Of a DNA stretch of 38,572 nucleotides, positions 2,745 through 35,918 are shown in pieces. This DNA is from a virus. Both the position numbers and the translations under genes were made by a program. Location: IMG/VR virus record IMGVR_UViG_3300028835_001054; one strand, 5' to 3'. The notes under the pieces were generated by a model. The model did not search any database. It was not told the DNA's origin and saw only the letters and a program-made list of their open reading frames with translations. Each line of letters begins with the position of its first letter. Position 1 is the stretch's first letter.

Positions 2745-2809
2745 TTTTGCTTCTCTCAAGGCTTCGAAGAGAGCAAATTTTGCTTCTCTCAAAGCATCGA
2801 AGAGAGCAA
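2745..2809 (+). repeat. Two abutting copies of the 33-nt palindromic element (2745..2777, 2778..2809)
   Basis: TTTTGCTTCTCTCAAGGCTTCGAAGAGAGCAAA then TTTTGCTTCTCTCAAAGCATCGAAGAGAGCAA. Flanked by ..TGCGC on the left and TGCGCC on the right. Confidence 0.9.
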
Positions 2810-2940
2810 TGCGCCGGGACGGATCCCCCTGCTATATGAGAAAATTCGATTTCCAGCGTGACACTAAAGCCCTGATTCTGTTGGCTTTCCAATCCCAGAA
2901 TCCGGATCCTGTTCGCCTATATGAGACGCTTCTGGAGACG

Positions 2941-2963
2941 ACAAAAAATAAGAAATCCTTATT
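2941..2963 (-). terminator. Weak intrinsic-terminator-like hairpin
   Basis: The minus-strand RNA reads AAUAAG-GAUUU-CUUAUU followed by UUUUUG, 52 nt after the stop of 3015..3494. The stem is short and AU-rich. Confidence 0.3.
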
Positions 2964-3014
2964 CCATGCGCTTTCAGGTTGCAGGCAGCCGAAGCTCCTG
3001 GAGTCTCCTATATG

Positions 3015-3494
3015 CTACTCATCCTCAGGTTGCTTCTGGAAAATCGACTTCGCTGGATTATCCGCTGGCTCCAGCGTTTCATCTTCGGTATAGGGCTCCT
3101 TCATAAGCTGTTTGCCTTCAGAGACCAATTCAGGAAGCTTTTTCGACTGAACGCTCAGGTCCCCTTCTACGATCTTCTGATAGAGGCTCAGAGCATCGCG
3201 GGGCAGCTTCTCCTCATCATTCAGCTTCACCAGAAGCTTCTTCAGAAGGTTGGCCTGATCCATGCTCAGATCGAGAACCATGCTGAAATCCTCAGCAAAT
3301 TCGTTTTCCCAATCCATGCCCCCGCGATCATTCTGGCGCAGATTGAGACCTTCGGGATCCCGGGCGCGCTCCATCTCATCCGGATCGAAACGTACCGCTT
3401 TGAGCAAGTTATCCGCTGTATTCATATCAAGATAACTACCCTCTCTGGGAAGGAATCCAGGGATCATAAGCCGTTCCAACAATGTGAAAATCAT
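3015..3494 (-). CDS. Hypothetical acidic protein (159 aa)
   Basis: ATG 3494 is preceded by GGGAGG. No family recognised. Confidence 0.4.
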   Translation of the reverse strand: MIFTLLERLMIPGFLPREGSYLDMNTADNLLKAVRFDPDEMERARDPEGLNLRQNDRGGMDWENEFAEDFSMVLDLSMDQANLLKKLLVKLNDEEKLPRDALSLYQKIVEGDLSVQSKKLPELVSEGKQLMKEPYTEDETLEPADNPAKSIFQKQPEDE

Positions 3495-3527
3495 GATAAA
3501 CCTCCCGGTCGGATAGGAAGTTGTTAA

Positions 3528-3579
3528 GCAGGATAGCCACCTCCGACCGTAACTCCCGAAGGAGTGGCGGCCATCCTGC
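3528..3579 (-). other. Long GC-rich stem-loop capped by a UUCG-tetraloop hairpin
   Basis: GCAGGAUGGCCGCC pairs with GGUGGCUAUCCUGC (14 bp including 2 GU pairs), enclosing ACUCC-UUCG-GGAGU. It lies between the stop of 3587..4801 and the RBS of 3015..3494. Confidence 0.6.
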
Positions 3580-3586
3580 GAGAATT

Positions 3587-4801: not shown

Positions 4802-4835
4802 TTTTCTATACCTCCATGCCCCCTGCGATCATGTC

Positions 4836-5126
4836 TCACATCGCAGATGACTCTATTTCCTGTCGTAATTGTGCTTTGGTCTTATTGGCTGCACTTGGGA
4901 TCCCCAGACTCCGGGCTTTTTCCATAAGCTCCTTTTTCCTCATCTCCTGGAGAGGCGTTTCTTTCTCTTCCACACCTATATACTTGCTGTATTCCTCAGC
5001 TTTCTTAGCAAGCTCCTCATCATCAACGATCTGAGTCTTGTTGCGAGGGAACCAAACTGCCTCCCCTGTCTTTGGATGTGGAACAATAACTAGCCGCCCG
5101 TGATTAGTGATCTCAAATCTACCCAT
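4836..5126 (-). CDS. Small protein with C-terminal Rho_N/HeH(SAP)-like motif (96 aa)
   Basis: MRKKELMEKARSLGIPSAANKTKAQLRQEI matches the helix-extended-helix pattern of Rho N-terminal-like domains, which are often encoded next to phage capsid genes. Confidence 0.55.
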   Translation of the reverse strand: MGRFEITNHGRLVIVPHPKTGEAVWFPRNKTQIVDDEELAKKAEEYSKYIGVEEKETPLQEMRKKELMEKARSLGIPSAANKTKAQLRQEIESSAM

Positions 5127-5160
5127 TCCGACCTACCTTTCAATTCGATACGAGGGTTAC

Positions 5161-5193
5161 TTTTGCTCTCTTCGAAGCCTTGAGAGAAGCAAA
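5161..5193 (-). repeat. 33-nt palindromic element, single copy, 2 nt after the major capsid stop codon
   Basis: Plus strand TTTTGCTCTCTTCGAAGCCTTGAGAGAAGCAAA. The capsid TAG is at 5196..5198. Confidence 0.9.
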
Positions 5194-5195
5194 TC

Positions 5196-6368
5196 CTATA
5201 ACACCTCGAGCCGCTTACATAAGACAGCGGCGTGGACGTCACCGACGAATGTATCGATCCGCGTTGTGAAATGGTAATAATTCCCACGATCTTCAGGGGA
5301 TCTCGCCGCTTCCATGATGAATTCCAGGTGGATACCGACTCCGAAGTTGCCGTTTTTGGTCAGCACAGCATCAGTCAGATCGCCACCAGTCGTCGGAAAG
5401 CCTGACTGCAACGTTCCCTTGATTGCGGCCGTATCTACCCACGCCTCTTTCTGAGCGTCTACCGTGTCGATCTTCATAGTGACAGGCATCAAGGGACAAG
5501 GAACGATTGGTATGCCATTTGCAGTTGTCAGCGTTCTCCCCATTACTTGCATATCACCAAGCTCCGTCCCGCGCTCCTGCAACTGCTCACAGTAATCGAC
5601 GAGGATCTTGTCGTTTACGAAAAACCTGAGGTCAGCAAGGCCATCAGCGAGGTATTCGGAAGGCATTTCCTTATACATCCGCCCGAACTTGATCTCCTGG
5701 CCGAAGGGCTGTGTAGTTTTCGTTTCTACGATCCCCTTTGTCGTCGTGAGAGCGAAATCCGAAGCTCTGTCTGTGACGATATTCGAGGCGTCCAGGATGA
5801 TGGTCGAGCCTGTCGAATCGTTCTCGTGGAGTTCGCCGCTTTGAGAATGATCCAGCCTGTAGCGCCAGCCATCCACCTCTCCCCTGGAATTATCTACCTC
5901 ATAGCCATTCAGATCATGGGTATCCCCTAGCCAGCAGATTTGCTCCATCTCCCGGGCCATTCTCTTCTCTACCATACTGAACAGATGATTCTTGAACTCG
6001 GCAGCGGAGCCAATCGTGAGATCCTCGTAATCTCTGTCTTTGATCAGAAGACCTCCACGAAGCTCTTTGCTGGTCAGCAGGATCGTATCATGTGCGAACT
6101 GCGTCTTGATCTTCGTGGAATCGTACTTCGCTTCAGGAACGAGAAAATCACCACTTCCCCAGGCGATCCCCCTGATGTTCTTCGTCCTGTATTTCATATT
6201 GACTTTTCGAGCGTAGTATTTCATGTTCGAGAGATCCCACGAGCGCTCGATAAAGCCAGCAGCTTCCTCTGGATTAAGCGTTATTGTCGGCAGTGTGAGC
6301 ATTTTATTGATAGCAGCTTGAACGCTAAACTTTCCGCTACTATCCAGCAGATCTCTGTTGCTTAACAT
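5196..6368 (-). CDS. Major capsid protein (390 aa, HK97-fold type inferred)
   Basis: Follows the protease and scaffold genes. RBS GAGGTGA. The N-terminal pattern LNPEEAAGFIERSWDLSNM...VNM is typical of HK97-family capsid proteins, and the size fits. Confidence 0.7.
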   Translation of the reverse strand: MLSNRDLLDSSGKFSVQAAINKMLTLPTITLNPEEAAGFIERSWDLSNMKYYARKVNMKYRTKNIRGIAWGSGDFLVPEAKYDSTKIKTQFAHDTILLTSKELRGGLLIKDRDYEDLTIGSAAEFKNHLFSMVEKRMAREMEQICWLGDTHDLNGYEVDNSRGEVDGWRYRLDHSQSGELHENDSTGSTIILDASNIVTDRASDFALTTTKGIVETKTTQPFGQEIKFGRMYKEMPSEYLADGLADLRFFVNDKILVDYCEQLQERGTELGDMQVMGRTLTTANGIPIVPCPLMPVTMKIDTVDAQKEAWVDTAAIKGTLQSGFPTTGGDLTDAVLTKNGNFGVGIHLEFIMEAARSPEDRGNYYHFTTRIDTFVGDVHAAVLCKRLEVL

Positions 6369-6392
6369 TTTCGATCACCTCTATTTTTGCAA

Positions 6393-6418
6393 AAGACATG
6401 GACATAGTATCATGTCTT
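6393..6418 (-). terminator. Hairpin/attenuator-like element between scaffold and capsid genes
   Basis: AAGACAUG-10 nt-CAUGUCUU followed by UUGC on the minus-strand RNA (run CUUUUG). Confidence 0.35.
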
Positions 6419-6439
6419 AATTGTCATACCTGAGGTAAC

Positions 6440-7378: not shown

Positions 7379-7498
7379 AATTACCTCCAGATCTTATATC
7401 GGCGGTCATATAAATCAGCATCGCCACGCAAACGCATCGAGTTCGGTATTCAGCTTCCAGAAAAATCTTCCTGGAACTGTGAGCTCAATCGTATATGA

Positions 7499-8425: not shown

Positions 8426-8531
8426 AATGCCCCCGTATCCTGTTTATTGCCTCTTCGATGAAAAGGTTCATACAATAACATCCCCACAAGATAACAGCAA
8501 TTCCCCAGAGAAATGGAATAAGATATGTCAT
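8391..8531 (-). CDS. Small single-TM protein (46 aa), uncertain
   Basis: ATG 8531 gives MTYLIPFLWGIAVILWGCYCMNLF... with one hydrophobic helix. It overlaps the protease start by 35 nt and has a weak RBS. Confidence 0.3.
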   Translation of the reverse strand: MTYLIPFLWGIAVILWGCYCMNLFIEEAINRIRGHYEDRKIEKNRS

Positions 8532-8544
8532 AAGCAAATCTCCA

Positions 8545-8721
8545 TCAACTCTTTTTCTTAGCGTAATAGCGGGCAAGTTCCCTTTTTGCTCTGTTCAGTT
8601 CCTTGATCACTTTGTCCAGATCCTTGCTATCTCTAGTATGGAAATCTATCTTTACTACAGCAGTCCCGAAGTCAGTAAAGACCTGGCAATGATCAAATTT
8701 GACCATCTTTCTCACTGACAT
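8545..8721 (-). CDS. Hypothetical small protein (58 aa)
   Basis: ATG 8721 (MSVRKMVKFDH...) is preceded by GAGGAG 7 nt upstream. The track start at 8763 has no RBS. Confidence 0.4.
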   Translation of the reverse strand: MSVRKMVKFDHCQVFTDFGTAVVKIDFHTRDSKDLDKVIKELNRAKRELARYYAKKKS

Positions 8722-8765
8722 AATTACTCTCCTCATGCAGCGACCGCTGGCCTCCAGCCACATAT

Positions 8766-14232: not shown

Positions 14233-14433
14233 TCAAAATACCTTTTTAGGCTTTCCCAACTGCTCCGCTTGATGTATTTCAACGTCAATCAGACGGCAGT
14301 GGATGTTATTATGTCCTGCCCGGCCGCAATATGAGCAAACCTTCGAAGCGCGCGCTATCTTGTCAAATTTCGCTTCCGTGATCTTTGCGCTTTTGCTTCT
14401 CTCAATACATCGAAGAGAGCAAAAGTCATTTCT
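14233..14433 (-). CDS. Startless 66-codon open frame in phase with the TGA of 14434..15114; contains a CCHC zinc knuckle (possible readthrough extension or decayed C-terminus)
   Basis: Codon-by-codon reading gives TGA(14434-36) RNDFCSLRCIERSKSAKITEAKFDKIARASKVCSYCGRAGHNNIHCRLIDVEIHQAEQLGKPKKVF TGA(14233-35). The frame contains no ATG/GTG/TTG. CX2CX4HX4C lies at 14296..14337. Confidence 0.4.
   Translation of the reverse strand, partial: RNDFCSLRCIERSKSAKITEAKFDKIARASKVCSYCGRAGHNNIHCRLIDVEIHQAEQLGKPKKVF
14391..14424 (+). repeat. 33/34-nt palindromic element, 9 nt downstream of the TGA at 14434
   Basis: TTTTGCTTCTCTCAATACATCGAAGAGAGCAAAA. Confidence 0.9.
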
Positions 14434-15114
14434 TCATAGCCCTTTCTGTTTCAGAAAGTTGTCTAGATCCCGGCGATCTTTTGTTTCCCGCTCTTCATGT
14501 GTTAGTTTAGCATCTTTATCAGGCCATTCGCCAGAGATCCGCTCAATACCTTTTTCAGATTCTATCAATTTGGAACAAGCCGCTATGTTGAAAGGTAGGC
14601 AATCAATTTCCCTGAGCGTAAACTTGACAATCGGAATGTCTATGATAATTCGATACCGAAATTCCCCGATGTATTGATATTTCTTCACCAGGTTAAGATT
14701 TGCTCTCTTCGATGCTTTGAAGGTAGTACCTGAAGTAAAATCTGAGATCTTGCGGATGCCATCGGAGATCCGCCTCAGGATCCAGTTATTGGCGCCCACG
14801 TTATAATCCAGAACCACTTCTTTTTCCCCCTGGAGCATATTGAACATGCCCCATCTTCGGCGCTTGCGATGTTTTTCCAGGACAGGACAATTAGCATAAG
14901 CGCAGTATCCGCCGGCATAGTTGACCCCGGCTGGTACGCCATCCGGCAGGAGCTTTCCCTTTCCAAATCTTCCCCTGGACGCAATGACTTTGATGTTATT
15001 TCTGAGAAAAAGTCTGCCAATTCCGCGCAGCTTTACCTCGAAAACTTTACCCCGGAGTTCGCTTACTAGCGGAGTGTTTCCCATCTTCCATTGATAATTC
15101 CATTTATTGCTCAT
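14434..15114 (-). CDS. Hypothetical protein (226 aa) carrying an in-frame long-variant repeat insertion
   Basis: ATG 15114 is preceded by AAGGGAG. No family recognised. Residues DFTSGTTFKASKRAN are encoded by the repeat at 14698..14742. Confidence 0.45.
   Translation of the reverse strand: MSNKWNYQWKMGNTPLVSELRGKVFEVKLRGIGRLFLRNNIKVIASRGRFGKGKLLPDGVPAGVNYAGGYCAYANCPVLEKHRKRRRWGMFNMLQGEKEVVLDYNVGANNWILRRISDGIRKISDFTSGTTFKASKRANLNLVKKYQYIGEFRYRIIIDIPIVKFTLREIDCLPFNIAACSKLIESEKGIERISGEWPDKDAKLTHEERETKDRRDLDNFLKQKGL
14698..14741 (-). repeat. Long (44-nt) variant of the palindromic element, inside ORF 14434..15114
   Basis: Plus strand ATTTGCTCTCTTCGATGCTTTGAAGGTAGTACCTGAAGTAAAAT. Same architecture as 25372..25416 and 35875..35918. 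Confidence 0.9.
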
Positions 15115-15597: not shown

Positions 15598-15616
15598 CGT
15601 TTTCACCTCATCATGA

Positions 15617-15737
15617 TTATGCTTCTCTCAAGGCTTCGAAGAGAGCAAAATTAGCTTCTCTTGAGGCTTCGAAGAGAGCGAAATTTTCTTCTCTTGCCCC
15701 TGGCTTTTGCTTCTCTCTGAGCATCGAAGAGAGCAAA
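15617..15737 (+). repeat. Cluster of three full copies plus one partial copy of the palindromic element
   Basis: Copies at 15617..15650, 15651..15683 and 15705..15737; partial TTTTCTTCTCTTGCCCCTGGC at 15684..15704. Confidence 0.9.
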
Positions 15738-15935
15738 TCCGGCTGTCTCTGGAACCTTCCAGAGTCCAAAATCACTATACATCTGGCATCTGGTGATATA
15801 CAGTACTATAGCGACCTCTTCTGGATCAATCGCTGTGCATTGGTAAGCTGCTGAATCTTCACTACAGTTCGCCATCAGGTCGTTTGTAAGCTGGCGAATT
15901 TCTTTTGCTGTTGGGCTAGTCTGTTTGCTTCCCAT
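15651..15935 (-). CDS. Hypothetical protein (94 aa) whose last ~30 codons and stop codon are supplied by the repeat cluster
   Basis: ATG 15935 is preceded by GAGGAG. The C-terminus FALFDAQREAKARGKRRKFRSLRSLKRS* is a translation of the repeats in reverse orientation. Confidence 0.45.
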   Translation of the reverse strand: MGSKQTSPTAKEIRQLTNDLMANCSEDSAAYQCTAIDPEEVAIVLYITRCQMYSDFGLWKVPETAGFALFDAQREAKARGKRRKFRSLRSLKRS

Positions 15936-16402: not shown

Positions 16403-16693
16403 CTAAAAGACCTTTCGCGAAACAGCTATTCCGGACAACTCTCTGTCGTGATACGCTAATTCCCTTTTCTCCCTAAACCACATGGTCACTTTCTCATGGC
16501 AGTCGGCACACAGGACGACAAGATCGTAAAGGTCTTCATCACCGACATACTCATAGCTGTTATGATGCACATGCAGATTCTTCGTCTCTGCACACAGCGC
16601 GCACCTATATCCGAAACGCTCTAGTGTCGCATTCCTTGTCACGAGCCACGCGTCGGATTTCAGATATATATCGTTATACCATGTTCTGTCCAT
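16403..16693 (-). CDS. HNH-type endonuclease-like protein (96 aa)
   Basis: CALCAETKNLHVHHNSYEYVG....LVVLCADCHEKV gives CxxC...HH-N...CxxCH, the HNH/zinc-finger pattern. Confidence 0.6.
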   Translation of the reverse strand: MDRTWYNDIYLKSDAWLVTRNATLERFGYRCALCAETKNLHVHHNSYEYVGDEDLYDLVVLCADCHEKVTMWFREKRELAYHDRELSGIAVSRKVF

Positions 16694-17470
16694 TTATTCA
16701 GGGTAGTCCTCTGTTATATACCCGTTTCTAATCCTGGACACTAGCGCACCGCCGGGATTCCTAAACGTGATTCCTTTCTCAAAGTCCTTTTTGATCTGTG
16801 CTATCTGCCGGAGAAGATACCGCGTTTCATATTTTGCCGCCAGTTCAGATCGCGCCGGCTCCTTTACGTGATGATAATCTAATTCCCTGCGCGCCTTCTC
16901 GAAATCAGCTTCCGATTTTTCCTCAGTTACCAAAAAACCATTACCACCATTTTTAGGACTTTTCTCAACCCCCTCTCCGGTAGTAACTATATTAATATTG
17001 GTATGGGTATGGTCCTCTCCTCTCTTCTCTTCTGATCTTAGGATGGTGCCCTCTACTGTGCCCTCTACTCGTCCTCTACTGTGCCCTCTACTGCTCCCTT
17101 TTTGTTCCAGTAAGCTATTTCCCCCAGTCCAGACGCCCTTATACAGCAACAGTGATTTATAGTTAATTTCGTACTTTGCGCAGGTGTTTTTACCAAAGTT
17201 TCCGGAGATAACTTTCAATAATGGCTTACCATCTATTCTGAACTTGCACAAATTAGCGCGCCTCCCGCGAACGGATTTCGGGGTATTTCCACCACCCGCC
17301 GCCATCGCCTGAAGGTTATTCAGATCAAATGGCATCTTAAATCCGCGCCTGTTGTGTTCCAGGATGATACCGATCAGAAACGTGAACGACTCTTCGCTCA
17401 GTTTGCATACCAGGCCATATTTGTCAATACCCAGCATTACATCAATCAACGTAAAAGGCCGATCAACCAT
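16694..17470 (-). CDS. Hypothetical protein (258 aa), possibly DNA-binding/replication-associated
   Basis: Sits in the replication/recombination module. Contains a 12-nt tandem repeat. The function is not recognised with confidence. Confidence 0.3.
   Translation of the reverse strand: MVDRPFTLIDVMLGIDKYGLVCKLSEESFTFLIGIILEHNRRGFKMPFDLNNLQAMAAGGGNTPKSVRGRRANLCKFRIDGKPLLKVISGNFGKNTCAKYEINYKSLLLYKGVWTGGNSLLEQKGSSRGHSRGRVEGTVEGTILRSEEKRGEDHTHTNINIVTTGEGVEKSPKNGGNGFLVTEEKSEADFEKARRELDYHHVKEPARSELAAKYETRYLLRQIAQIKKDFEKGITFRNPGGALVSRIRNGYITEDYPE
17046..17092. repeat. Tandem 12-nt repeat, four units (one unit is 11 nt)
   Basis: GTGCCCTCTACT GTGCCCTCTACT CGTCCTCTACT GTGCCCTCTACT. Encodes SRGHSRGRVEGTVEGT on the minus strand. 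Confidence 0.85.
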
Positions 17471-18274: not shown

Positions 18275-20245
18275 TTATTTCGGCGCATCGTTGAGGGCTT
18301 CTTGCTCCTCTTTCTGATTCTGGGTAGGTGCCAGATGTTTTGACAATTCCTGTTCGAGAGTTCTGAGTAGAAGTTCTGCCTCTGGCAGCTTCATCATGCC
18401 CATTCGCTTTGGCTTATATCCGATCACATCTTTAACCTTCACCCTGAAAGCAACCGATCCCAGCGTTTTATACTGCGGAAGGGACGTAGCGAGCGCGCGC
18501 AATCTCTTGAATTGCTCTTTGGTGATCTCCTGTTCTTCATCCGGTGGCTCCGTCTGTCCAGGAAGCACAGGATTGGGATTGTGATCGACTATATCCAGTT
18601 GCGGATTCTCTTCATCAGGTTTGGCATCCGGATCGAAATCTGGCAACCGTCGGATCCGGACAATAGCCTCTGCGTAATCATCCAGAGTCCATGAATCTGC
18701 TGGGGCTTTGTGTAGATTTTCGAGGATCCACGCGTCCCGCTTCTCTACGGTTCCGAATTTCTTGACGCATACCGTAAGTAGATCCTTTGTGAGGTTCCGC
18801 TCCTCTTTTTCCGCTGATTCGATTACAGCGTCAATCTCCGCACGGAGTTCTTGCGCTGTTTCCTCTGTGCCAGTTTTTACCGCATCTTTCACAGCGTCCT
18901 CAACAGGCGTGCCATCTTTCGTGACTGGCTCTGGAAATTCTGCCTGGATCAAGAGGATCGCTTTCTGGAATTGTTCCGCCATCCATTTCGAGAGATCAGT
19001 ATCATCAGGGAAGTGTTCCAGAATCCATACGTCGCGCTCCTGGATTCCAGCGAAACAGGTTGCACCTAATTCCATGAAAGTTGATCGGAGTGCCTCGAGC
19101 TCAGGATCGGAATCTTCGTCCTTTCCGGTATCCACAACATCGCCCAGGACTTTCAGAGCTTTTTGATAATCTTCCACTGTCCAGGCTCCGATAAGCTTTT
19201 CTGCAACCGTTTTGCAGAAAGCATCCCTGTCCTGGATTCCAGCGAATACCGTCGCTCCCAATTCAGCGAAAGCGGCTTTCAGTTGCTCGAGCTCAAGATC
19301 GAATCTTCCGCTCTTCCCTTTCGTTTCCTCTTCTGGCTCCTGTTTCGGTTTGTGCGCCTCTGCTCTCTTCGAAGCCTTGAGAGAAGCAAACGGCATTTTA
19401 TGGATGGCGCTGAAAGCCTTTGCATAATGCGGCGCTTTCCATTTTGTGACAGAAGCTTCGCCCGTGTTCTGGAGTTGCCAGGAGTGCCGATCATCTTCAT
19501 TTGCGAAGAGGTCCTTGATCATCCCAAAATATGATTCTCTGAGCGCTGTTAGATCCTCTCCGCTATCTACCGTCACCGATGCCACTTCAGGAATCTCCTG
19601 GGCAGGCTCCGATGCTTCCAGCGGCGGCTCATTATATGCCTGTAAAGCAGGATTCTCGAATCCGCCGCCGAGTTCCTCAGCGATATATGGTAGATGCTGA
19701 GTTTCCAGTCCCGCGTATCGGAGCGCTCGTGTTACAGCGCATTTTCTGAACATATCGCGCAACATTGTCTCCCAAAACCTGTTCGGCTTATTATCGCTTT
19801 TGCGCCGTTTGATACAATCCTCCAACCACGTTTCCCAGACGTGAGGTCTTTCTCTGTCCTTGATCGTCAAAGTGATTTTGCACACTTTGGGATCGTCAGG
19901 ATCGTCGAATTCATACTCAATATGCTCCAGCCCATTAGCGTATGCCACATCCAGATACTTTCTATAGCCCACTATCGTCTGACCAGGTTCGCCTGCGATC
20001 TTCATAAAGTATACCTCGCCCTTTAGCGGATCCAAATTCAGGGCGCGGCATTTTCCCATGAACCAGAAAATATCATCATCTGTGCCGCCTTTGCATATAT
20101 ATTTTCTCACAAGCTCCTTGTTGATCTGGATTGTCTCATAGCTGTATTGGAGCGGCGCTATCTCCGCGCCGGTTCCCTCTGTTGCTGGCTGTCTGGTTTC
20201 CGCATCCATCTTATCAAGTTCTGCCATGTCATTTTTCTGATTCAT
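18275..20245 (-). CDS. RecT/Redbeta-like single-strand annealing protein with a long repeat-containing C-terminal extension
   Basis: The N-terminal third (CRALNLDPLKGEVYFMKIAG..GQTIVGYRKYLDVAYANG...MFRKCAVTRALRYAG) fits the RecT/Bet pattern. The C-terminal ~400 aa hold four ~50-aa repeats. The start is ambiguous (ATG 20245 or 20227). Confidence 0.65.
   Translation of the reverse strand: MNQKNDMAELDKMDAETRQPATEGTGAEIAPLQYSYETIQINKELVRKYICKGGTDDDIFWFMGKCRALNLDPLKGEVYFMKIAGEPGQTIVGYRKYLDVAYANGLEHIEYEFDDPDDPKVCKITLTIKDRERPHVWETWLEDCIKRRKSDNKPNRFWETMLRDMFRKCAVTRALRYAGLETQHLPYIAEELGGGFENPALQAYNEPPLEASEPAQEIPEVASVTVDSGEDLTALRESYFGMIKDLFANEDDRHSWQLQNTGEASVTKWKAPHYAKAFSAIHKMPFASLKASKRAEAHKPKQEPEEETKGKSGRFDLELEQLKAAFAELGATVFAGIQDRDAFCKTVAEKLIGAWTVEDYQKALKVLGDVVDTGKDEDSDPELEALRSTFMELGATCFAGIQERDVWILEHFPDDTDLSKWMAEQFQKAILLIQAEFPEPVTKDGTPVEDAVKDAVKTGTEETAQELRAEIDAVIESAEKEERNLTKDLLTVCVKKFGTVEKRDAWILENLHKAPADSWTLDDYAEAIVRIRRLPDFDPDAKPDEENPQLDIVDHNPNPVLPGQTEPPDEEQEITKEQFKRLRALATSLPQYKTLGSVAFRVKVKDVIGYKPKRMGMMKLPEAELLLRTLEQELSKHLAPTQNQKEEQEALNDAPK
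19361..19390 (-). repeat. Palindromic element inserted in frame in the RecT-like gene
   Basis: Plus strand TGCTCTCTTCGAAGCCTTGAGAGAAGCAAA, read as FASLKASKRA between protein repeats 1 and 2. Confidence 0.9.
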
Positions 20246-21995: not shown

Positions 21996-22025
21996 ATTAT
22001 ACCATAGAGCGACACGATATGTCAA
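21996..22025 (-). promoter_or_regulatory. Leftward early promoter (near-consensus sigma70, extended -10)
   Basis: Minus strand TTGACA-18 nt-TATAAT with TGG upstream of the -10 (TGGTATAAT). About 45 nt upstream of the Cro-like start. Confidence 0.6.
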
Positions 22026-22114: not shown

Positions 22115-22205
22115 GAGATAATTACCAGTTATACGATCATTTATTTTTTTAAGCCGCCGACCAAGTTTGGCGGAGCAAATGCCAGAACAGATCAGGAGGT
22201 ATCGA

Positions 22206-22922
22206 ATGAGAAAAAAGCCATTTACTTTGACTCTCAAGGAGAAAGAGACGATAGGGCTAATCATCAAAGACAGGCGAAACAGACTCGGCTTAACTCTCGA
22301 CGATCTAGCTGGCGCGATAGGGAGCACAAACGCATATTTATCCATGCTAGAAAACAGTAAGCGCATAGCTTCAGATAGAGTCCTCCGCCAGATCACTGAG
22401 GAACTCGATTTGGATTATGAGTACCTGCGAGAACTTTCAGAAAAAGAGCGGTATGAAAGAGAAGCAAACAAGATTAGATCCAAATATTTTGAGATACAGA
22501 AAATAGCTCAGGATAAATGCATGAACCTGGATAGCTCTGTTCTGTATGTTCCTATACTTGGGACCGTTCCTACTCAAGCTCCACTTGCAGATGAATCGGA
22601 GACAGCTATCTGTGTGCCTCAGAATTGGATCAGTGAGGCAGACAAAATCTTCGCTCTACAGATCAGTGATGACACCATGACCGGTCGGCTTGAGGATACC
22701 GACCTCGTAGCTGTCAAGAGAGGACTCGATCCAGAAAATAATGATATAGTAATAGTCCGCGTAAATGATATGATAATGGCGAAGACAATCGAGTTTATTG
22801 GTAATATGGTTGTGTTAAGAAGCACAAACGGACAGCCTGAGACGATGCACTTCACCGAAAAAGATAAGGAGCAGATGGAGGTAATCGGCAAAGTGATTTT
22901 CAGGATTACCCAGGCTTCGTGA
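22206..22922 (+). CDS. CI/LexA-like repressor: XRE HTH plus S24 peptidase-like C-terminal domain (238 aa)
   Basis: ATG 22206 lies 7 nt after AGGAGG. HTH RLGLTLDDLAGAIGSTNAYLSMLENSKR. C-terminal ALQISDDTMTG...DIVIVRVNDMIMAKTIE aligns by eye with the G(D/N)SM...K pattern of S24 domains, with Thr in the Ser position. Confidence 0.7.
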   Translation: MRKKPFTLTLKEKETIGLIIKDRRNRLGLTLDDLAGAIGSTNAYLSMLENSKRIASDRVLRQITEELDLDYEYLRELSEKERYEREANKIRSKYFEIQKIAQDKCMNLDSSVLYVPILGTVPTQAPLADESETAICVPQNWISEADKIFALQISDDTMTGRLEDTDLVAVKRGLDPENNDIVIVRVNDMIMAKTIEFIGNMVVLRSTNGQPETMHFTEKDKEQMEVIGKVIFRITQAS

Positions 22923-22934
22923 AAAGGAGATGCT

Positions 22935-23432
22935 ATGTCACTGAATTGTGGAGAACCGCAACAGAAAGAGGAAGAGGAACCTGAAATAGAGAAGAAGAAA
23001 GGCATTTGGGCTGGTGGGGATGTATCTTATAAATCTGGCTGTCTAGTAGCTCTGATTGTTGTTGCTTTCGCGATTCTTGCCGTTGTAATATTTCAATTCT
23101 TATCATCAGATGGCGATACAAAAAAGCCAGATATTCTCAAGTTTAGCGCCTCAGTCTCATTCACGGGAACCCAATTTATCATCATTAACCAGGATACTTT
23201 TGATTGGCTCAATGTCAAGCTGGAGATAAACGCCGGATTGATCGCCGGCGGTTATTCACTGGAGCATCCAGTTATGAAAGCCGGGCAGAGCTACACAGTT
23301 GGAGCACTGCAATTTGCTAAATCCGATGGCACGCGTTTTAATCCAATCACAATGAAGCCTCAGAAATTAGCTATTTATTCACGCGATAAGCGTGGCATGA
23401 TAAAGGGATCATATCATGCCCGATGGAAGTAA
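22935..23432 (+). CDS. Membrane-anchored protein (165 aa), candidate superinfection-exclusion/immunity-region moron
   Basis: AAGGAG RBS. Acidic N-terminus, one TM helix (CLVALIVVAFAILAVVIFQFL), then a beta-rich ectodomain. Located directly after the repressor gene. Confidence 0.35.
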   Translation: MSLNCGEPQQKEEEEPEIEKKKGIWAGGDVSYKSGCLVALIVVAFAILAVVIFQFLSSDGDTKKPDILKFSASVSFTGTQFIIINQDTFDWLNVKLEINAGLIAGGYSLEHPVMKAGQSYTVGALQFAKSDGTRFNPITMKPQKLAIYSRDKRGMIKGSYHARWK

Positions 23433-23460
23433 ATCTGTTCGTCAAATCGGCTCAAAATCA

Positions 23461-23548
23461 TCCGCACTATTGAGTACAGTAATATCCGCACTATCGGGTT
23501 AAATAGTCCGCACTATTGAGTACAGTGATCCGCACTATTGAGTTAAGT
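23461..23548 (+). repeat. Four direct iteron-like repeats upstream of the rep gene
   Basis: TCCGCACTATTGAGTACAGT (23461), TCCGCACTATCGGGTTAAAT (23485), TCCGCACTATTGAGTACAGT (23507), TCCGCACTATTGAGTTAAGT (23529). Spacing 24/22/22 bp. Confidence 0.8.
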
Positions 23549-23571
23549 TTTTGGAGGCAAAGTCAATAATC

Positions 23572-24729
23572 ATGCGCTTTTATAGACCCAGAGACTTCTT
23601 TATTACTCTTTTAAAACGATTTAAAAGGGCGCCTGTGCAATTAGAGCTTGATCCGGACTCTCCCGAATCTTCTTCTCTCAAGGCTTCGAAGAGAGCAAAA
23701 TTTGCTTCTCTCAAGGCATCGAAGAGAGCAAAATCCACCCCACCGAAAGAAGTCAAGGAAGCAAAAGAGAAAAAGCCAAAGCCCTCCCCGGAGATAGTGA
23801 GAAGCGAACTCAACCTGGAAAAGAACGCGGTCTTTGCAGTCTCCACTTACAGGGAAAGGTCCAGGGAGGTCATCAGAACCTATGAGACGGATTCGGGATC
23901 CATGGAGCGCAGAGTCGTTGTAGGCAGAGCGACGGACGGCTCCGAAGTCGGTATCCTCACCACGACTCATTTCAAGCTGTATCTTGCCCTCCTGGAACTC
24001 TGGGAGAAAGCAGGGAAGCCAGTTAGCCAGCCTGTCCATTTCACCGTCCTCAAGTTGATAAAACGTCTCAAATTGGTGGATTCAGGGAATAATTATAAGA
24101 ACATGCTGAAATCAATGGAAGGACTGAGAAGCATACCGATACGATTCATTGATAGCTTCCAGACCAAAGATGGAGAATTCCGGTCAACAGGGCATTTGAG
24201 CGTCCTATCGTACCTGGATATATACGAGAGAAAGAGAAGGACGAAAGGCGGAGATAAGGTCTATGGATACGGGGAATTCCAGTTTGACAGGCACATTCTT
24301 ATGTCGCTTGTGGAAAATTTCACGCACCCTCTTCGATTAGATGTGATCACCAGTTTCAGAAAACATCGGGAACTAGCTATACTCCTCTACACATATCTTG
24401 ATCGCCAATTAGCCTTCAGAAGAAAGTTTGAGATTACGCTGAAAAAGCTCTACACGCAACTTGATCTGTCTCAGGCATACATTACCTATCCATCACAGAG
24501 GAAATCGAAAATAGAGCCCGTTCTGGAGCAACTGATAGGCAAAGAACTATCTACAGGGAAGTTATCATACTGCGAAACCGAGAAGACGAAGGACGGGAGG
24601 GATTATAAATTGGTTTGCAGAAAGACCGGCGTTACGCAAATCCCCGCGCCGGAGCCTGTCAAATTAGATTGGAGCCTGGCCCTGGACAAACTGTTATCTC
24701 AGATGGAGCAAATGAAAGACAACCGATGA
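23572..24729 (+). CDS. Replication initiator, RepA-like winged-helix protein (385 aa)
   Basis: Iterons lie immediately upstream. The central region (GILTTTHFKLYLALLELWEKAG...FTVLKLIKRLKL..GNNYKNMLKSMEGLRSIPIRF...HRELAILLYTYLDRQL) resembles plasmid/phage replication initiator protein A-type sequences. ATG 23572 follows GGAGG; the track TTG 23551 is less likely. Confidence 0.55.
   Translation: MRFYRPRDFFITLLKRFKRAPVQLELDPDSPESSSLKASKRAKFASLKASKRAKSTPPKEVKEAKEKKPKPSPEIVRSELNLEKNAVFAVSTYRERSREVIRTYETDSGSMERRVVVGRATDGSEVGILTTTHFKLYLALLELWEKAGKPVSQPVHFTVLKLIKRLKLVDSGNNYKNMLKSMEGLRSIPIRFIDSFQTKDGEFRSTGHLSVLSYLDIYERKRRTKGGDKVYGYGEFQFDRHILMSLVENFTHPLRLDVITSFRKHRELAILLYTYLDRQLAFRRKFEITLKKLYTQLDLSQAYITYPSQRKSKIEPVLEQLIGKELSTGKLSYCETEKTKDGRDYKLVCRKTGVTQIPAPEPVKLDWSLALDKLLSQMEQMKDNR
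23668..23733 (+). repeat. Two abutting copies of the palindromic element in frame inside rep
   Basis: TCTTCTTCTCTCAAGGCTTCGAAGAGAGCAAAA plus TTTGCTTCTCTCAAGGCATCGAAGAGAGCAAAA, read as SSSLKASKRAK FASLKASKRAK. Unit boundaries coincide with codon boundaries. Confidence 0.9.
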
Positions 24730-25082
24730 AGGAATGGATAACTGTCAAGGAAGCCGCGAAACTTCGGAAATGCACGGAAAGAAACATTCTGCAACTGATA
24801 AAGAAAAATGAGCTTGAGGCCAGAAAGGAAGGGCATCGCTGGCTGATACGGAAAGATTCAATAGAAAAGATTTCCGAAAAATCTCCGAATAATTCCGAAC
24901 TCATTTCCGTACTTAAAGCAGAACTCCAGGAGAGGAATGATCAGATAAAACAGTTGCAGGAAGAATTAAGCAAGGTCCGAGAAAGATCCGATACGATTAT
25001 TCTTAGACTTACAGAACACAATCAGCAATTATTGGAAGATAAGCGCCCCTGGTATCACAAGCTATTCAAGCGGCATCAATAA
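24726..25082 (+). CDS. HTH (MerR/excisionase-like) DNA-binding protein with coiled-coil tail (118 aa)
   Basis: ATGA overlap with the rep stop. MKEWITVKEAAKLRKCTERNILQLIKKNELEARKEGHRWLI is a helix-turn-helix_17-type N-terminus. The C-terminus is paralogous to that of 21577..21951. Confidence 0.5.
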   Translation: MKEWITVKEAAKLRKCTERNILQLIKKNELEARKEGHRWLIRKDSIEKISEKSPNNSELISVLKAELQERNDQIKQLQEELSKVRERSDTIILRLTEHNQQLLEDKRPWYHKLFKRHQ

Positions 25083-25317: not shown

Positions 25318-25370
25318 AGGCGGCTCCCGGTCTGTAAGATGAGGAGAGTTTTTTGTTTCAGGAGCCGCCT
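25318..25370 (+). terminator. GC-rich hairpin with T-run in the convergent intergenic region
   Basis: AGGCGGCTCC-33 nt-GGAGCCGCCT followed by GATTTTG. The loop is unusually large for an intrinsic terminator. Confidence 0.35.
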
Positions 25371-25371: not shown

Positions 25372-25416
25372 ATTTTGCTCTCTTCGATGCCTTGAAGGTA
25401 GTACCTGAAGCAAAAT
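25372..25416 (-). repeat. Long (45-nt) variant of the palindromic element, 17 nt after the last late-operon stop codon
   Basis: Plus strand ATTTTGCTCTCTTCGATGCCTTGAAGGTAGTACCTGAAGCAAAAT, followed by a truncated arm TTTGCTCTGG (25415..25424). Confidence 0.9.
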
Positions 25417-32531: not shown

Positions 32532-32809
32532 TTTCTTCCCTTTGCTTTGAGCTTTGCAAGCATCTGTTCCGAAGTCACGCGCTTGACAATCCGCGTTCTA
32601 TTACTTCGAGATGGTCTTTCCTTTGATCTTCCCCTTGATCTTTCTATGATGTCCAGTTTCTTTTTCATGAAACCGTAGAGATATGGCAATTCGTATTTCA
32701 GGACTGCCTCGCGTGTATGACCTGAGTCCAGAAGGCAAAAACTTATCTCTTCCAGCGTGTCTAACTGGTCTCTGAGGCTATATCCTGATTCTCCGCCTGT
32801 GTAGGGTTT
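32528..32809 (-). CDS. -1 frame extension of the tail assembly chaperone (GT-type product, about 92 extra codons)
   Basis: The -1 frame is closed by TGA at 32810..32812, then open from AAA CCC (32809) to TGA at 32528..32530, which overlaps the tape-measure ATG (ATGA). All triplets were checked by eye and contain no stop. Confidence 0.65.
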   Translation of the reverse strand, partial: KPYTGGESGYSLRDQLDTLEEISFCLLDSGHTREAVLKYELPYLYGFMKKKLDIIERSRGRSKERPSRSNRTRIVKRVTSEQMLAKLKAKGRK

Positions 32810-33219
32810 TCAGAGTCTACCTCATTTGCTCTCTTCGATGCCTCGAGAGAAGCAGAAGGCGCATCTTCGCCAGCCTTTGCGTCCGCAACAAATTCATCTT
32901 TCTCAAAATCCGCCTCTATCTCTTCCCGGGTATAGCTAGTGAAGAAATAGATTACCTCTTTGAGAATCTCGTTAGTGGCCGCCTTATCAGTAAACCCTAT
33001 GCGCGCCCCGACTTCTTCTATGCTTATCTCCGCAGCGTCCCGGAGCGCTCTGACCCAGGCAAGCACCCTGAAAACTTCACGATCTAATGGTCCATCTTCG
33101 TGGTATAAGCACTTTGGTATGGGTCGGGTGATCCGTTTAGGCAGGTTCTCGGCAGCCAGGATAACCTCGTTAAGTGTAGCCTTATCACCCTGTAATTTCA
33201 GTAAATCAATGAATTCCAT
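32761..33219 (-). CDS. Tail assembly chaperone (G-type, 152 aa, acidic)
   Basis: Immediately upstream of the tape measure, with an overlapping -1 ORF. Acidic C-terminus. Confidence 0.65.
   Translation of the reverse strand: MEFIDLLKLQGDKATLNEVILAAENLPKRITRPIPKCLYHEDGPLDREVFRVLAWVRALRDAAEISIEEVGARIGFTDKAATNEILKEVIYFFTSYTREEIEADFEKDEFVADAKAGEDAPSASLEASKRANEVDSENPTQAENQDIASETS
32803..32809 (-). promoter_or_regulatory. Candidate -1 slippery heptamer A_AAC_CCT
   Basis: The zero frame reads GAA AAC CCT, which fits the X_XXY_YYZ pattern. It lies 14 codons before the zero-frame stop. Confidence 0.55.
32824..32856 (-). repeat. Palindromic element in frame in the chaperone gene, 15 nt upstream of the slippery site
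   Basis: Plus strand ATTTGCTCTCTTCGATGCCTCGAGAGAAGCAGA, read as SASLEASKRAN (11 codons exactly). Confidence 0.9.
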
Positions 33220-33242
33220 TTTCTCTCCTCATCGGCTTTGAC

Positions 33243-33611
33243 TCAGAATAACGCTTTTAACGTCTTCTCCAGGATCGTCCAGATCTTGCCTTGCATCTCC
33301 ATAAGACCTGGTAGCAGAAAAGCATACTTCCCGTTCCAGCGACATTCCACATATATGGCATAATATGTGCCTGCATAAATGTATCCCATGATATAGCTCT
33401 TGCTCTCGATAATAACGTGATGGCCTATGCTGCGCCGGAGGGTACCCGTTCTGTCGGTAAACCCCTTCCCCGTCCGCTGCCTCTGGAACTCTTTTTTGAT
33501 ATGCGCCTCTGTCGCCAGAGAAGCAAGCCCCACCCCTTTGACGCCAGCTTTGACAATCTCCGCCTCGGCGCGGTCAAGATTTTTCAGTACCGTATCGAGA
33601 CCGTAGATCAT
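33243..33611 (-). CDS. HK97 gp10-like tail-completion family protein (122 aa)
   Basis: TDRTGTLRRSIGHHV...YIYAGTYYAIYVE matches the tG.Lr.Si...YA..vE signature of the gp10 family. ATGA-type overlap with the upstream gene. Confidence 0.5.
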   Translation of the reverse strand: MIYGLDTVLKNLDRAEAEIVKAGVKGVGLASLATEAHIKKEFQRQRTGKGFTDRTGTLRRSIGHHVIIESKSYIMGYIYAGTYYAIYVECRWNGKYAFLLPGLMEMQGKIWTILEKTLKALF

Positions 33612-35854
33612 GGGTTCTCCACGGAATATTTATAATCATCCAGATACATGATAGGAACGTCATGGACGACATAATCCAAATTCGAGAAATTGATCGGCCC
33701 AAGCAGGATTTTCGATTCCTCACAATACAACTGGTTTGTATATCCATCGCTATCAGTAAACTGTAGTATCGTCTGAAGAACCGGCGGCTCGAAATTATCA
33801 TCAAAATGATATTCCCGGAAATCTACCTTATGACATGAGAAGTTATCGAACCACGCTGCAACACCATCGCCATAGATTTTGATCGTGAGCGTTCCGCTGG
33901 CTGCCGTGAATCTGTGAGTCACCTTCACCCAATCGGTCGTCTCTGAGCCATTATCGAGCGTTACAGATGCCGCTCCTGACAGAACGACCATAGCCTTGTC
34001 AGCGGTTCCAGCTTTAACATGGCCGCAAAATGTGTACTCCTCCCCACTGGTAATCGTTACCGCCTGGCTCACGTATTTCGTTGCAGGATCGTCGGAATTG
34101 ACCTCATAGCAGAACTCTCCAGACTGTTCCGCCACGTCCTCATCATCTACAGTCGGCACGCCAGTAGTAGCCCACTCGGAGTCTGCAATATCCGACTCGA
34201 ACCCGCCCGCGTCGATATAGTTTTTCGATATATGGACGTTATCCCAGTATCCCATCTCCCCATCTGTCGTCGATCCAGATCCCAGGTCGATAGTCGTGGC
34301 AGTATCGCCAGCCTCGAAATCGAACTCTATCTCATACCAGGTCCCGCCGGTAGTGGCTCCGGCTTGCGTTACGGTTATGCCCTTATCCGCCGCAAGGTCC
34401 ACATCCACAAGCTGGGAAGCTCCGTTAGGTGTAACTGGCGCTCTAAACCAGCCGTGGAAATGATACTCTACATTAGTGATAGTTGTCACCGTATGCCGAG
34501 CAGAGGCTTGAGTCCCATCGGTATTTTTGACTCTGAGAGATCTGGCTCCATACTTTGTATACTGAGTATCTTTCCTGACCTCACAGAAAGCATCCGGCCT
34601 CTTCCAGGGGCCAATCCCCGCGTTTTCCATTCCCCAATCGAAGTTCATCAGATTGGAGCTCAGGATAGCTATCTGAGATCTGCTATGCACTCCATAATTC
34701 GCCGTTTCGCCCCCAACGAATGTTAAAACCAAACCGTTCGCGGCGGTAGCAAGATCTTCAATATCAGTCGCCGCGGCAGCATCTCTAAATGGCCACCAGG
34801 CATCAGGTAATTCCGCCTCTGTTCGTGGAGTAGCGGCAGCCGTTAGAGCCTGAGCCGCTGTCAGGACCACGTCATCATAAATCGCCGCCTCAGCAATATG
34901 CCCATCGAAAGGCCTGCCACCATCGGATTCTGCCCCTATAGATATAACAAGAGCATTTGAGCAATCACCAATATTGGCCAGCGTTCCGGTTCTGGATGCT
35001 GTATCATCATAGCCCTCGACGTAGATTTTACAATCCGCTGCGCTATTCTCATTATAGGTCACTATTACAAAGCGCATCTCGTCTTTGAGGATCGGAGTAG
35101 CGCCTGTCAGGAGATAAGCATCGACTCCATCGTTTACAGCGAAGTTCAGAAAGCCGAAAACGTCAATGAAGAGCACCCACCCAGTGGTCGTGACGTAAGC
35201 CGTACCATCGTAATCAGAGCTTTTTGCGATCAAGACTTCTGTCGTACTTTCACGCCTGCGCTTGAACCTGATGAGGATTGAGTAATCCTGAGTATCCCCT
35301 ATATCGAACAGGACGTTATCAGCGCGGGTAAAATACTGCGGCGCCGAATAATCCAGATCCGCCATCACGCCGATTGTTTCCAGGCTGGGTATGTCGTTTC
35401 CAGCGCCATCGTCGATGTCTACTGACGTTCCTGGAGTAACAGGAGTTCCATCAATGTAGCCCGCATAGAAAGCGCCAGTCTCTTCGCTCAATATGATCTG
35501 CTCATTATCCTCAAAAGAATTGTGAGAGCCTGGTTCGGTCGTGAGTGTATCTTCCGTATCCCCGGTAGTTATAGCAGTGACCTCTTTCGTGCCTGCTTTC
35601 TCTACAGGATCGATACCGCAAAGGTCAGCGAGAGTGTCAACGTTGAAAGCCATCTCACCGATTGTCAAGCCCACATTCCGCCTCACAAGAGTAGCGCCTT
35701 TGAGAACGCGGCTCTGGCCTCTCCACTCAATAATAGTATCCTCACTGACAAACGAGGATCCGCCGCGCCAATCTGCCATCAGGAAATCAGCCGATGCAAT
35801 TACGTCTGATAGACCTGCATAGAATGTGCCATCAAATGCTATATGCTCATTCAT
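33608..35854 (-). CDS. Tail tube protein paralog with ~570-aa internal LamG plus CBM-like insertion (748 aa)
   Basis: N-terminus (..IIEWRGQSRVLKGATLV..IGEMAFN) and C-terminus (FEPPVLQ...LLGPINFSNLDYVVHDVPIMYL) are homologous to the termini of the 167-aa tube protein. The middle has a LamG pattern (ILIRFKRR..VIVTYNENSAADCKIYVEGY..FDGHIAEAAIYDDVVLT) and two CBM-like jelly rolls. Confidence 0.6.
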   Translation of the reverse strand: MNEHIAFDGTFYAGLSDVIASADFLMADWRGGSSFVSEDTIIEWRGQSRVLKGATLVRRNVGLTIGEMAFNVDTLADLCGIDPVEKAGTKEVTAITTGDTEDTLTTEPGSHNSFEDNEQIILSEETGAFYAGYIDGTPVTPGTSVDIDDGAGNDIPSLETIGVMADLDYSAPQYFTRADNVLFDIGDTQDYSILIRFKRRRESTTEVLIAKSSDYDGTAYVTTTGWVLFIDVFGFLNFAVNDGVDAYLLTGATPILKDEMRFVIVTYNENSAADCKIYVEGYDDTASRTGTLANIGDCSNALVISIGAESDGGRPFDGHIAEAAIYDDVVLTAAQALTAAATPRTEAELPDAWWPFRDAAAATDIEDLATAANGLVLTFVGGETANYGVHSRSQIAILSSNLMNFDWGMENAGIGPWKRPDAFCEVRKDTQYTKYGARSLRVKNTDGTQASARHTVTTITNVEYHFHGWFRAPVTPNGASQLVDVDLAADKGITVTQAGATTGGTWYEIEFDFEAGDTATTIDLGSGSTTDGEMGYWDNVHISKNYIDAGGFESDIADSEWATTGVPTVDDEDVAEQSGEFCYEVNSDDPATKYVSQAVTITSGEEYTFCGHVKAGTADKAMVVLSGAASVTLDNGSETTDWVKVTHRFTAASGTLTIKIYGDGVAAWFDNFSCHKVDFREYHFDDNFEPPVLQTILQFTDSDGYTNQLYCEESKILLGPINFSNLDYVVHDVPIMYLDDYKYSVENP

Positions 35855-35874
35855 AATATCACGCCCTTTCCCAG

Positions 35875-35918
35875 ATTTGCTTCAGGTACTACCTTCAAGG
35901 CATCGAAGAGAGCAAAAT
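35875..35918 (+). repeat. Long (44-nt) variant of the palindromic element, 7 nt after the tail tube stop codon
   Basis: ATTTGCTTCAGGTACTACCTTCAAGGCATCGAAGAGAGCAAAAT. Confidence 0.9.

Follow-up and report, generated by a model that had tools for sequence, protein, structure and literature searches.

Repetitive extragenic palindromic (REP) sequences are palindromes of 20-40 bp which lie mostly downstream of genes and sometimes wholly inside open reading frames (ORFs) (PMC3733652). Rickettsia palindromic elements (RPEs) are palindromic repeats found as in-frame insertions in functional genes that are not related to one another (PMC3733652, PMC10969869). REPs, REPINs and RPEs are regarded as features of bacterial chromosomes, co-evolving there with a resident transposase. 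Here, we describe a comparable burst in a tightly packed 38-kb phage, the virus with the IMG/VR record IMGVR_UViG_3300028835_001054; the whole stretch of 38,572 nucleotides (nt) that was analysed is called the window. The repeat is a 33-nt imperfect palindrome, which occurs in 14 full copies and one partial copy, i.e. about once per 2.5 kb. It is probably a small, non-autonomous copy-and-paste mobile DNA element of the REP or RPE type, which has recently multiplied in this phage lineage.

The copy number is far above expectation. The 14-mer of the right arm, TCGAAGAGAGCAAA, was found 14 times with at most two mismatches, compared to 0.56 expected matches, and none of 100 shuffled sequences reached this number. 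For the left arm, TTTGCTTCTCTC, 10 matches with at most one mismatch were observed (0.41 expected), nine of them within copies. An earlier note on this DNA, which had been made from the sequence alone, described a dispersed family of some 15 copies and was correct in all coordinates and orientations. The element comprises 32-33 nt (11 codons at 33 nt), its arms are TTTGCT(T)CTCT and AGAGAGCAAA, its ends read TTTGC and GCAAA, and relatives of ~43 nt and of 25 nt exist. An alignment of eleven 33-nt copies gave sharp ends, with positions 2-33 conserved and the flanks unrelated. Positions 5-13 and 20-33 are almost invariant; in agreement with the earlier note it is the loop that varies, and so do the outermost bases of the left arm. 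In the long variant of ~43 nt, which is represented by the three copies at 14698, 25372 and 35875, the TC of the left arm is swapped for AGGTACTACCT, a net gain of 9 nt. When a profile derived from the copies was run on the window, only these 14 scored 20.8 or more, and the next score was at most 4.2; this gap indicates that the window contains no old, decayed copies. Tandem Repeats Finder reported 33-nt arrays at 2745-2809, 15616-15696 and 23672-23734. All three arrays (2745-2809, 15617-15737 and 23668-23733 when delimited by the copies) are head-to-tail with a period of 33 nt and zero spacer, as had been noted before. Of the ten loci, six occupy spacers, mostly at a distance of 0-18 nt behind a stop codon, and four are inside ORFs.

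The four loci inside ORFs allow a comparison with homologous proteins. In the replication-initiator gene (23572..24729, plus strand), two head-to-tail copies at 23668..23733 (plus) encode in frame SSSLKASKRAKFASLKASKRAK, which constitutes residues 33-54. All eight homologues, whose identity in the alignment is 57-86%, lack exactly this 22-residue block, and the flanks align residue for residue. The ORF of a 152-residue protein (32761..33219, minus), located just upstream of the tape-measure gene, contains a 45-nt in-frame insertion at 32812..32856 (minus), which is made up of a 33-nt copy (32824-32856) and 12 further nt; the encoded sequence is SASLEASKRANEVDS (residues 122-136), and the three homologues lack exactly these 15 residues. 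In the ORF of a 216-residue protein (14434..15084, minus), a long variant at 14698..14741 (minus) encodes in frame FTSGTTFKASKRAN (residues 116-129). The sole homologue, P0128 (64% identity), has well-conserved segments on either side, with exactly these 14 residues missing between them. The fourth case is a single copy at 19359..19390 (minus) in the RecT-like gene (18275..20245, minus), which contributes in frame FASLKASKRA (residues 286-295) where the linker behind the first conserved module of the protein begins. Here, the alignments with two homologues stop at the residues MP right before the block and the homologues possess unrelated linker sequence, a picture which is consistent with insertion. 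Thus, the comparison of orthologues proposed in the earlier note gave an exact absence of the block for three proteins and a compatible result for the fourth. Judged by these alignments, the repeat is a nucleotide-level insertion into otherwise conserved sequence and not an inherited protein motif. Three of the four insertions are in poorly conserved linker or tail segments; the one in the 216-residue protein is between conserved blocks.

The second source of evidence is a syntenic relative, which is represented by the Logan contigs L021 and L023 from a single sample and has ~78-87% nucleotide identity with the window over the shared genes. The relative contains no 33-nt copy in ~29 kb, in which nine of the ten loci have their equivalents. 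At the replication-initiator locus, L021 reads CCCCAATC|CGTTCC with contiguous flanks, versus CCCGAATC[66 nt]CACCCC in the window. At the 2745 locus, 8 nt in L023 correspond to ~70 nt in the window. The 25372 locus is occupied in L021 by a gene for 68 residues and the 35875 locus in L023 by unrelated spacer sequence; in the spacer that matches the latter locus, at ~7230-7290 of L023, short repeats of the GTGAATC type were seen. The relative carries one related palindrome of 25 nt, TTTGTCTTCTTTCGAAGAAAGCAAA, which agrees with the 33-nt unit in its ends and almost entirely in its right arm, and is devoid of the loop segment; the loop is therefore dispensable, and the arms are retained. This palindrome sits between genes of 122 and 137 codons, and the window is exactly empty at this site (ATTCTGAG|TCAAAGCC). 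A further carrier is L003, a 1.1-kb contig from a JGI metagenome with a perfect 33-nt copy that is 100% identical to 23701-23732. It is placed in a 50-nt spacer between two ORFs without nucleotide or translated similarity to the window or the relative. Presence and absence in both directions typify mobile DNA, and so does the identical copy in an unrelated genome. Among the explanations offered in the earlier note, an RPE-like miniature palindrome tolerating in-frame insertion is hence the best supported one: homologues lack the block, sites are empty in the relative, the 25-nt element is reciprocal, and the carrier L003 is unrelated.

An inspection of the coding copies showed that all four independent insertions are in sense orientation and use one frame, which encodes FASLKASKRAK or FASGTTFKASKRAK. 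Five frames of the unit are open, of which three belong to one strand and two to the opposite one; if these were used equally, a single frame in all four cases would have a probability of P ~ (1/5)^3 = 0.008. Among the intergenic copies, those of L003 and L023 included, three are sense and five are antisense, which indicates that the direction of transcription does not constrain insertion itself. The uniform orientation and frame of the coding copies points to a peptide-level filter that also acts on this nucleotide-level element. The proposal of the earlier note, selection on nucleotide arms or structure rather than on a peptide, holds for the mode of insertion and falls short with respect to this filter. 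The simplest reading, which we infer, is that only a tolerated peptide survived, i.e. that purifying selection acted on the encoded peptide. The peptide of the used frame is rich in Ala, Ser and Lys and contains neither Cys nor a run of Leu; in two coding copies the first Phe is now Ser. The same filter is suggested by the lengths of the inserts, which in genes are 33, 42, 45 and 66 nt, all multiples of three, versus 25 nt for an element in a spacer. Frameshifting or readthrough into the copies at 5161 and 25372 was considered and rejected: a stop codon 16-19 nt upstream closes the FASL frame, and there is no slippery site. A readthrough of the capsid stop codon into the 5161 copy would yield the LLLS frame and not FASL.

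How the element might be recognised and moved was assessed from its predicted fold and its junctions. The predicted RNA hairpin has a 10-bp stem (6+4) with one bulged U (T in DNA) and a loop of 11 nt, so that the stem of 11-12 bp assumed earlier was slightly too long. Folding energies range from -4.4 to -14.2 kcal/mol for RNA and from -4 to -8.5 kcal/mol with DNA parameters. Only the copy at 14391 is clearly better than dinucleotide shuffles (-14.2 kcal/mol, z -4.6), and the 23668 copy as well as the long variants barely fold. The changes in the outer left arm (TTAT, ATTA, ATCT, TTCT) are uncompensated in the right arm. No U-run follows the copies in either orientation, the subsequent sequence being A-rich or unrelated, and a terminator scan flagged no copy as a hairpin; the stem is AT-rich. 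According to these predictions, the hairpin is neither an intrinsic terminator nor a strong RNA structure. An RNA hairpin was therefore rejected as the primary explanation, based on the weak, non-significant folding and the uncompensated changes. Retention of the arms in both the 33-nt and the 25-nt forms suggests that the hairpin may matter for recognition.

At the junctions that were examined (the replication-initiator insertion, the 2745 pair, the 45-nt insertion and the 25-nt element), no constant target duplication was found. The flanks in question are AATC at the replication-initiator insertion, GCGC at the 2745 pair, CT at most at the 45-nt insertion, and nothing beyond a 1-nt ambiguity at the 25-nt element. 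The insertion in the 216-codon gene interrupts AGA|TCT in the middle. TC follows the element in six of 12 independent loci (binomial P ~1e-4 given the dinucleotide frequencies of the window), and in five of 12 it is preceded by GA. As the empty sites already possess the TC, a weak target preference is suggested. The junctions fit single-strand transposition of the HUH type, with no duplication and a short target motif, and microhomology-mediated copying about equally.

If the element is mobile as we propose, its movement would depend on an enzyme acting in trans, which recognises either the hairpin or the inverted arms. The likeliest candidate would be an HUH/Y1 single-strand transposase, similar to RAYT (REP-associated tyrosine transposase) or IS200-IS605 enzymes, of the host or a co-resident element, which would leave no target duplication. 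Arrays may have been made by replication slippage or unequal recombination, and the recombination system of the phage (RecT and a PD-(D/E)XK nuclease) might occasionally copy the element plus some flank. The copies 15705-15737 and 32824-32856 have ~17 nt of similar 3' flank in common. Effects on the phage, for example that of a weak 3' hairpin after the capsid gene, would be secondary.

Several findings weigh against this proposal. A mobilising enzyme was not found in the window: as the earlier note had already remarked for transposases and RAYT-like genes, scans with Pfam, PHROGs and NCBIfam detected no transposase, RAYT or integrase among the window's proteins. The GTAG/CGTC tag of classical REPs is absent, and the doublets are head-to-tail and not inverted as in REPINs. 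Among 185,579 representative genomes (GTDB), a pattern scan covering exact matches of 19 specified bases gave two single-copy chance matches and neither an array nor a locus with multiple matches; with no true copy in these genomes, a host reservoir is undocumented. A hydropathy score did not single out the used frame as encoding the mildest or most hydrophilic peptide, which is why selection as the cause of the single frame is a reading we infer. The heterogeneity of the junctions (AATC, GCGC, CT or none; inserts of 25, 42, 45 and 66 nt; one flank shared by two copies) fits illegitimate or microhomology-mediated recombination as well. Finally, a functional role of the element, e.g. as a protein-binding site, is possible and would count against a purely mobile nature.

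Further searches were performed for the repeat and for similar elements. INPHARED phages and PLSDB plasmids contained no nucleotide similarity to the genome or the repeat. In IMG/VR, the exact pattern had no match and a relaxed pattern with variable gap gave two chance matches. JGI metagenomes contributed five pattern matches, of which only the one in L003 is a true copy. The relatives identified by their terminase (L011-L018) and distant elements carrying the replication initiator (L028-L031) possess no copies and no analogous dispersed repeat, and Rfam and tRNA scans of the sequence found nothing. No description of a REP-sized multi-copy element inserting in frame in a phage was found in the open-access literature subset.

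The main rival to a mobile element, to which we assign a low though real probability, is a functional cis-element that spread through its benefit to the phage, either as a multi-copy binding site for a DNA-binding protein of the phage or its host, comparable to the KorB/ParB operators of plasmid RK2 or the stoperators of cluster A mycobacteriophages, or as an RNA hairpin which stabilises or processes mRNA. The combination of a near-invariant right arm, TCGAAGAGAGCAAA, and a left arm with uncompensated changes is seen more typically with sequence recognition than with a hairpin, and the phage encodes several helix-turn-helix (HTH) proteins and a ParB-like protein. The arms are retained between the 33-nt and 25-nt variants, and the position of most intergenic copies close behind a stop codon, in one case directly after the capsid-like gene, would suit a cis-acting site, too. 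On the other hand, the sites are not conserved in the close syntenic relative, which has the same genes; five of the ten loci are inside or overlap coding sequence (including an array that overlaps a predicted ORF of 94 codons); both orientations are present; and an identical copy exists in an unrelated contig. The hairpin version suffers in addition from the weak folding described above, which is mostly no better than that of shuffles, with one coding copy and the long variants barely folding and no U-run. Of the two functional options raised in the earlier note, the RNA hairpin is consequently weakened, whereas the binding site retains some probability, although the sites are not conserved in the relative.

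Somewhat more doubtful is an explanation that assumes either a phage-resident minimal palindrome, which propagates itself and needs no transposase, or a portable module that benefits the phage, for example as a protein-binding or anti-defence site. In the transposase-free version, the spread would use the RecT protein of the phage, its PD-(D/E)XK exonuclease, and a small HNH endonuclease (16403..16693), which is absent in the repeat-free relative. If either version were true, phage proteins would be continuously remodelled by added basic linkers of 11 residues.

The remaining explanations are effectively excluded. Phages are known to carry solitary CRISPR repeat units, and a CRISPR-repeat mimic or another anti-defence decoy, as had also been considered, would agree with the size of 33 nt and the partial palindromy. 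This option is very improbable: the pattern scans found no locus with multiple matches in the 185,579 genomes (exact matches of 19 specified bases), the metagenome collection or IMG/VR, the units abut without spacers, copies are inside genes, Rfam gave no match, and the whole unit is self-complementary from end to end, unlike most CRISPR repeats. Slimmer still are the chances of a protein motif, with FASLKASKRAK acting as a basic tag or cleavage site and the nucleotide identity being a by-product of recent duplication. The common frame and orientation of the coding copies, unit lengths that are multiples of three, and the 9-nt difference of the long variant would speak for it; it is already largely refuted by nine of 15 copies being non-coding or antisense, by the homologues without the block, by the related 25-nt element, whose length is not a multiple of three, and by the functionally unrelated carriers (a recombinase, a replication initiator, a tail-module protein and a protein of unknown function). 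Short repeats can be mis-assembled, but an assembly artefact, as feared in the earlier note, is next to impossible, because independent assemblies are identical, coding copies leave the reading frames intact, and the same 33-mer occurs in a separate JGI sample. A MEGAHIT k141 contig from ENA is 100% identical to the window over the common region, and this k=141 assembly spans every array (the longest has 121 nt). Several Logan contigs are also identical to the window, and their ends fall exactly within repeat copies (window positions 15623, 23701, 5190 and 2748), as is expected at k=31 of real repeats of at least 31 nt.

The six spacer loci are occupied as follows. At 2745..2809 (plus), two head-to-tail copies (2745-2777 and 2778-2809) are antisense to local transcription and precede a minus-strand gene by 33 nt, as counted from its ATG at 2712. 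The single copy at 5161..5193 (minus) is sense in the minus-strand operon; it is located 2 nt after the TAG (5196-5198) of the capsid-like gene, which encodes 390 residues, and its end is 34 nt before the next start codon (5126). A single copy with the loop variant AATACA is found at 14391..14424 (plus), antisense and 9 nt past the stop codon of the 216-codon gene. The antisense array at 15617..15737 (plus) comprises the copies 15617-15650, 15651-15683 and 15705-15737 and the 21-nt partial copy 15684-15704. It overlaps the 3' end of the predicted 94-codon ORF (15651..15935), and ~15 nt separate its end from the ribosome-binding site of the gene that follows. The long variant at 25372..25416 (minus) is sense, 18 nt after the stop codon of a tail gene for 319 residues. 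The one at 35875..35918 (plus) is antisense and placed between the stop codon of a gene for 167 residues (35926) and the start codon of a gene for 748 residues (35854). The distances of spacer copies from nearby stop codons are thus 2 nt at the capsid-like gene and 9, 18 and 7 nt elsewhere. Over 43 nt, 25372-25414 and 35876-35918 are 100% complementary and inverted; they bracket the whole 10.4-kb tail module with the tape measure and the lectin-domain proteins. Recombination between them would invert this module; no invertase gene was found.

The repeats also affect gene prediction. The public call of a 123-residue gene (2521..2892, minus, TTG start) reads through both copies at 2745..2809. 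In L023, the gene starts at the ATG equivalent to 2712, which indicates that this call is over-extended and that the true product has 63 residues. The predicted 94-codon ORF ends within repeat copies, with the C-terminus FALFDAQREAKARGKRRKFRSLRSLKRS; this ORF and a further one of 47 codons, which both adjoin the 15617 array, have no homology with the genes of the relative. Within the ORF 16694..17470, which encodes a protein of 258 residues and unknown function, a 12-nt tandem repeat (GTGCCCTCTACT, ~4 copies) of another kind was seen at 17046-17099. The relative has local repeats of its own, namely three copies of TGGCGGAAAATCCGCCAAGT beside its Phage_rep_O gene (L021, 4427-4500).

The window itself is a temperate phage or a phage-plasmid. 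Positions 1-144 and 38429-38572 form a direct repeat with 100% identity, and these identical ends indicate that the contig is circularly closed, or terminally redundant, at ~38.4 kb (~38,428 bp). The virion genes encode the small and large terminase subunits, a portal, a Mu F-like protein, an S78 protease and a capsid-like protein. Tail and lysis functions are represented by the tape-measure protein (947 residues in the called product), lectin-domain tail proteins and an M15 endolysin; DNA processing by RecT, the PD-(D/E)XK nuclease, an MT-A70 methylase and the small HNH endonuclease; control and replication by a LexA-like repressor (HTH plus S24) and a plasmid-type replication initiator preceded by four probable iterons. 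Nearly all genes are on the minus strand, except for the region of about 22200-25080. These putative iterons are four direct repeats of ~22 nt (ATCCGCACTATTGAGTACAGT) at 23455-23551, directly upstream of the replication-initiator gene, and the same arrangement is kept in L021 (9884-9981) and L028 (4074-4165). By their arrangement, they probably belong to an origin of the plasmid type; together with the missing integrase, they suggest the lifestyle of a phage-plasmid.

Additional observations concern neighbouring genes and signals. In the RecT-like protein (18275-20245, minus), a normal RecT domain is followed by four or five repeats of a module of ~55 residues with the pattern L..LR..F....F....DR..W.L......S...W....YAKAF..I; homologues P0002 and L021 have the same architecture. 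The HNH endonuclease gene (16403-16693, minus; 96 residues) is part of the replication and recombination module, beside the genes of the 258-residue protein and the MT-A70 methylase. The whole block of these three genes is absent in L021, and the endonuclease is a possible lead for the mobilising activity. At 21996-22025 (minus), a perfect sigma-70 consensus promoter (TTGACA, an 18-nt spacer, TG-TATAAT) is directed away from the gene of the LexA-like repressor (22206..22922, plus); it suggests a bacterial host and is probably the early lytic promoter. A long G+C-rich hairpin at 25320-25369 (GGCGGCTCC ... GGAGCCGCC) is found where the plus- and minus-strand operons converge. It is kept in L021, and in the window the 25372 copy abuts it. 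The gene after the capsid-like gene (4836-5126, minus) encodes a 96-residue protein with a weak motif of the Rho_N/SAP-like helix-extended-helix type at residues 59-92, which scores below the Pfam cut-offs.

With the preferred reading of a mobile palindrome, a recombinase, a replication initiator, a tail-module protein and a protein of unknown function have all received the element with their reading frames intact. Empty sites, a sister element in the relative and a copy in an unrelated genome make up a compact natural system, which can be used to ask how mini-elements move, whether they cross between phages sharing a host, and how much they contribute to the evolution of linkers and tails of phage proteins. 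For annotation, the case is a warning that gene callers extend ORFs through such repeats, as for the 123-residue call, and that assemblers break contigs there.

A comparison with known systems shows the following. Cluster A mycobacteriophage stoperators and the RK2 KorB operators are short conserved sites, which are present in a dozen or more copies in a small replicon, in intergenic as well as coding positions. Among related genomes such sites are conserved, and the orientation of stoperators follows that of transcription; in contrast, the close relative lacks the sites described here, which are present in both orientations. The elements MPME1 and MPME2 of mycobacteriophages resemble our repeat in that they are non-autonomous, move within or between phage genomes and were found by presence and absence in near-identical phages (PMC3029335). 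However, MPMEs have ~439 bp, inverted-repeat ends and a small ORF, and 6 bp are added at the junction (PMC3029335); moreover, they occur as a single copy per genome and without in-frame peptide insertions, whereas the window harbours a 15-copy family with in-frame insertions. MITEs (miniature transposable elements with inverted repeats) such as Correia/NEMIS, ERIC and RUP are likewise non-autonomous, have inverted ends, adjoin genes or operons and sometimes fuse in frame with ORFs (PMC10969869). They differ by their size of 70-300 bp, terminal inverted repeats of 15-30 bp and defined target duplications from a single 33-nt hairpin lacking a consistent duplication.

A close likeness is that to REPs and REPINs, which are imperfect, bulged palindromes of 20-40 nt with many copies, mostly extragenic and just downstream of genes, occasional copies in ORFs that add a few residues, no target-site duplication and a non-autonomous nature (PMC3733652, PMC3116915). 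In contrast to these, the element lacks the GTAG/CGTC end tag by which REPs are defined (PMC3733652), GTAG being found only internally on the reverse strand of the long variant. No RAYT, the tyrosine HUH transposase that mobilises REPs and REPINs, is nearby; doublets are head-to-tail with zero spacing instead of inverted pairs; and the carrier is a 38-kb phage and not a chromosome, the stem is weak and AT-rich, and a third of the copies are coding. With RPEs, the element shares the character of a palindromic selfish repeat located in frame in functional, unrelated genes, where it adds a conserved peptide and is revealed by orthologues without the insertion (PMC10969869, PMC3733652). RPEs, however, have ~100-150 bp and are confined to Rickettsia chromosomes, whereas the element studied here is, with 33 nt, four times shorter, resides in a phage and is not related to them in sequence. 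Thus, it works like a REP and, within genes, like an RPE, but it belongs to neither family.

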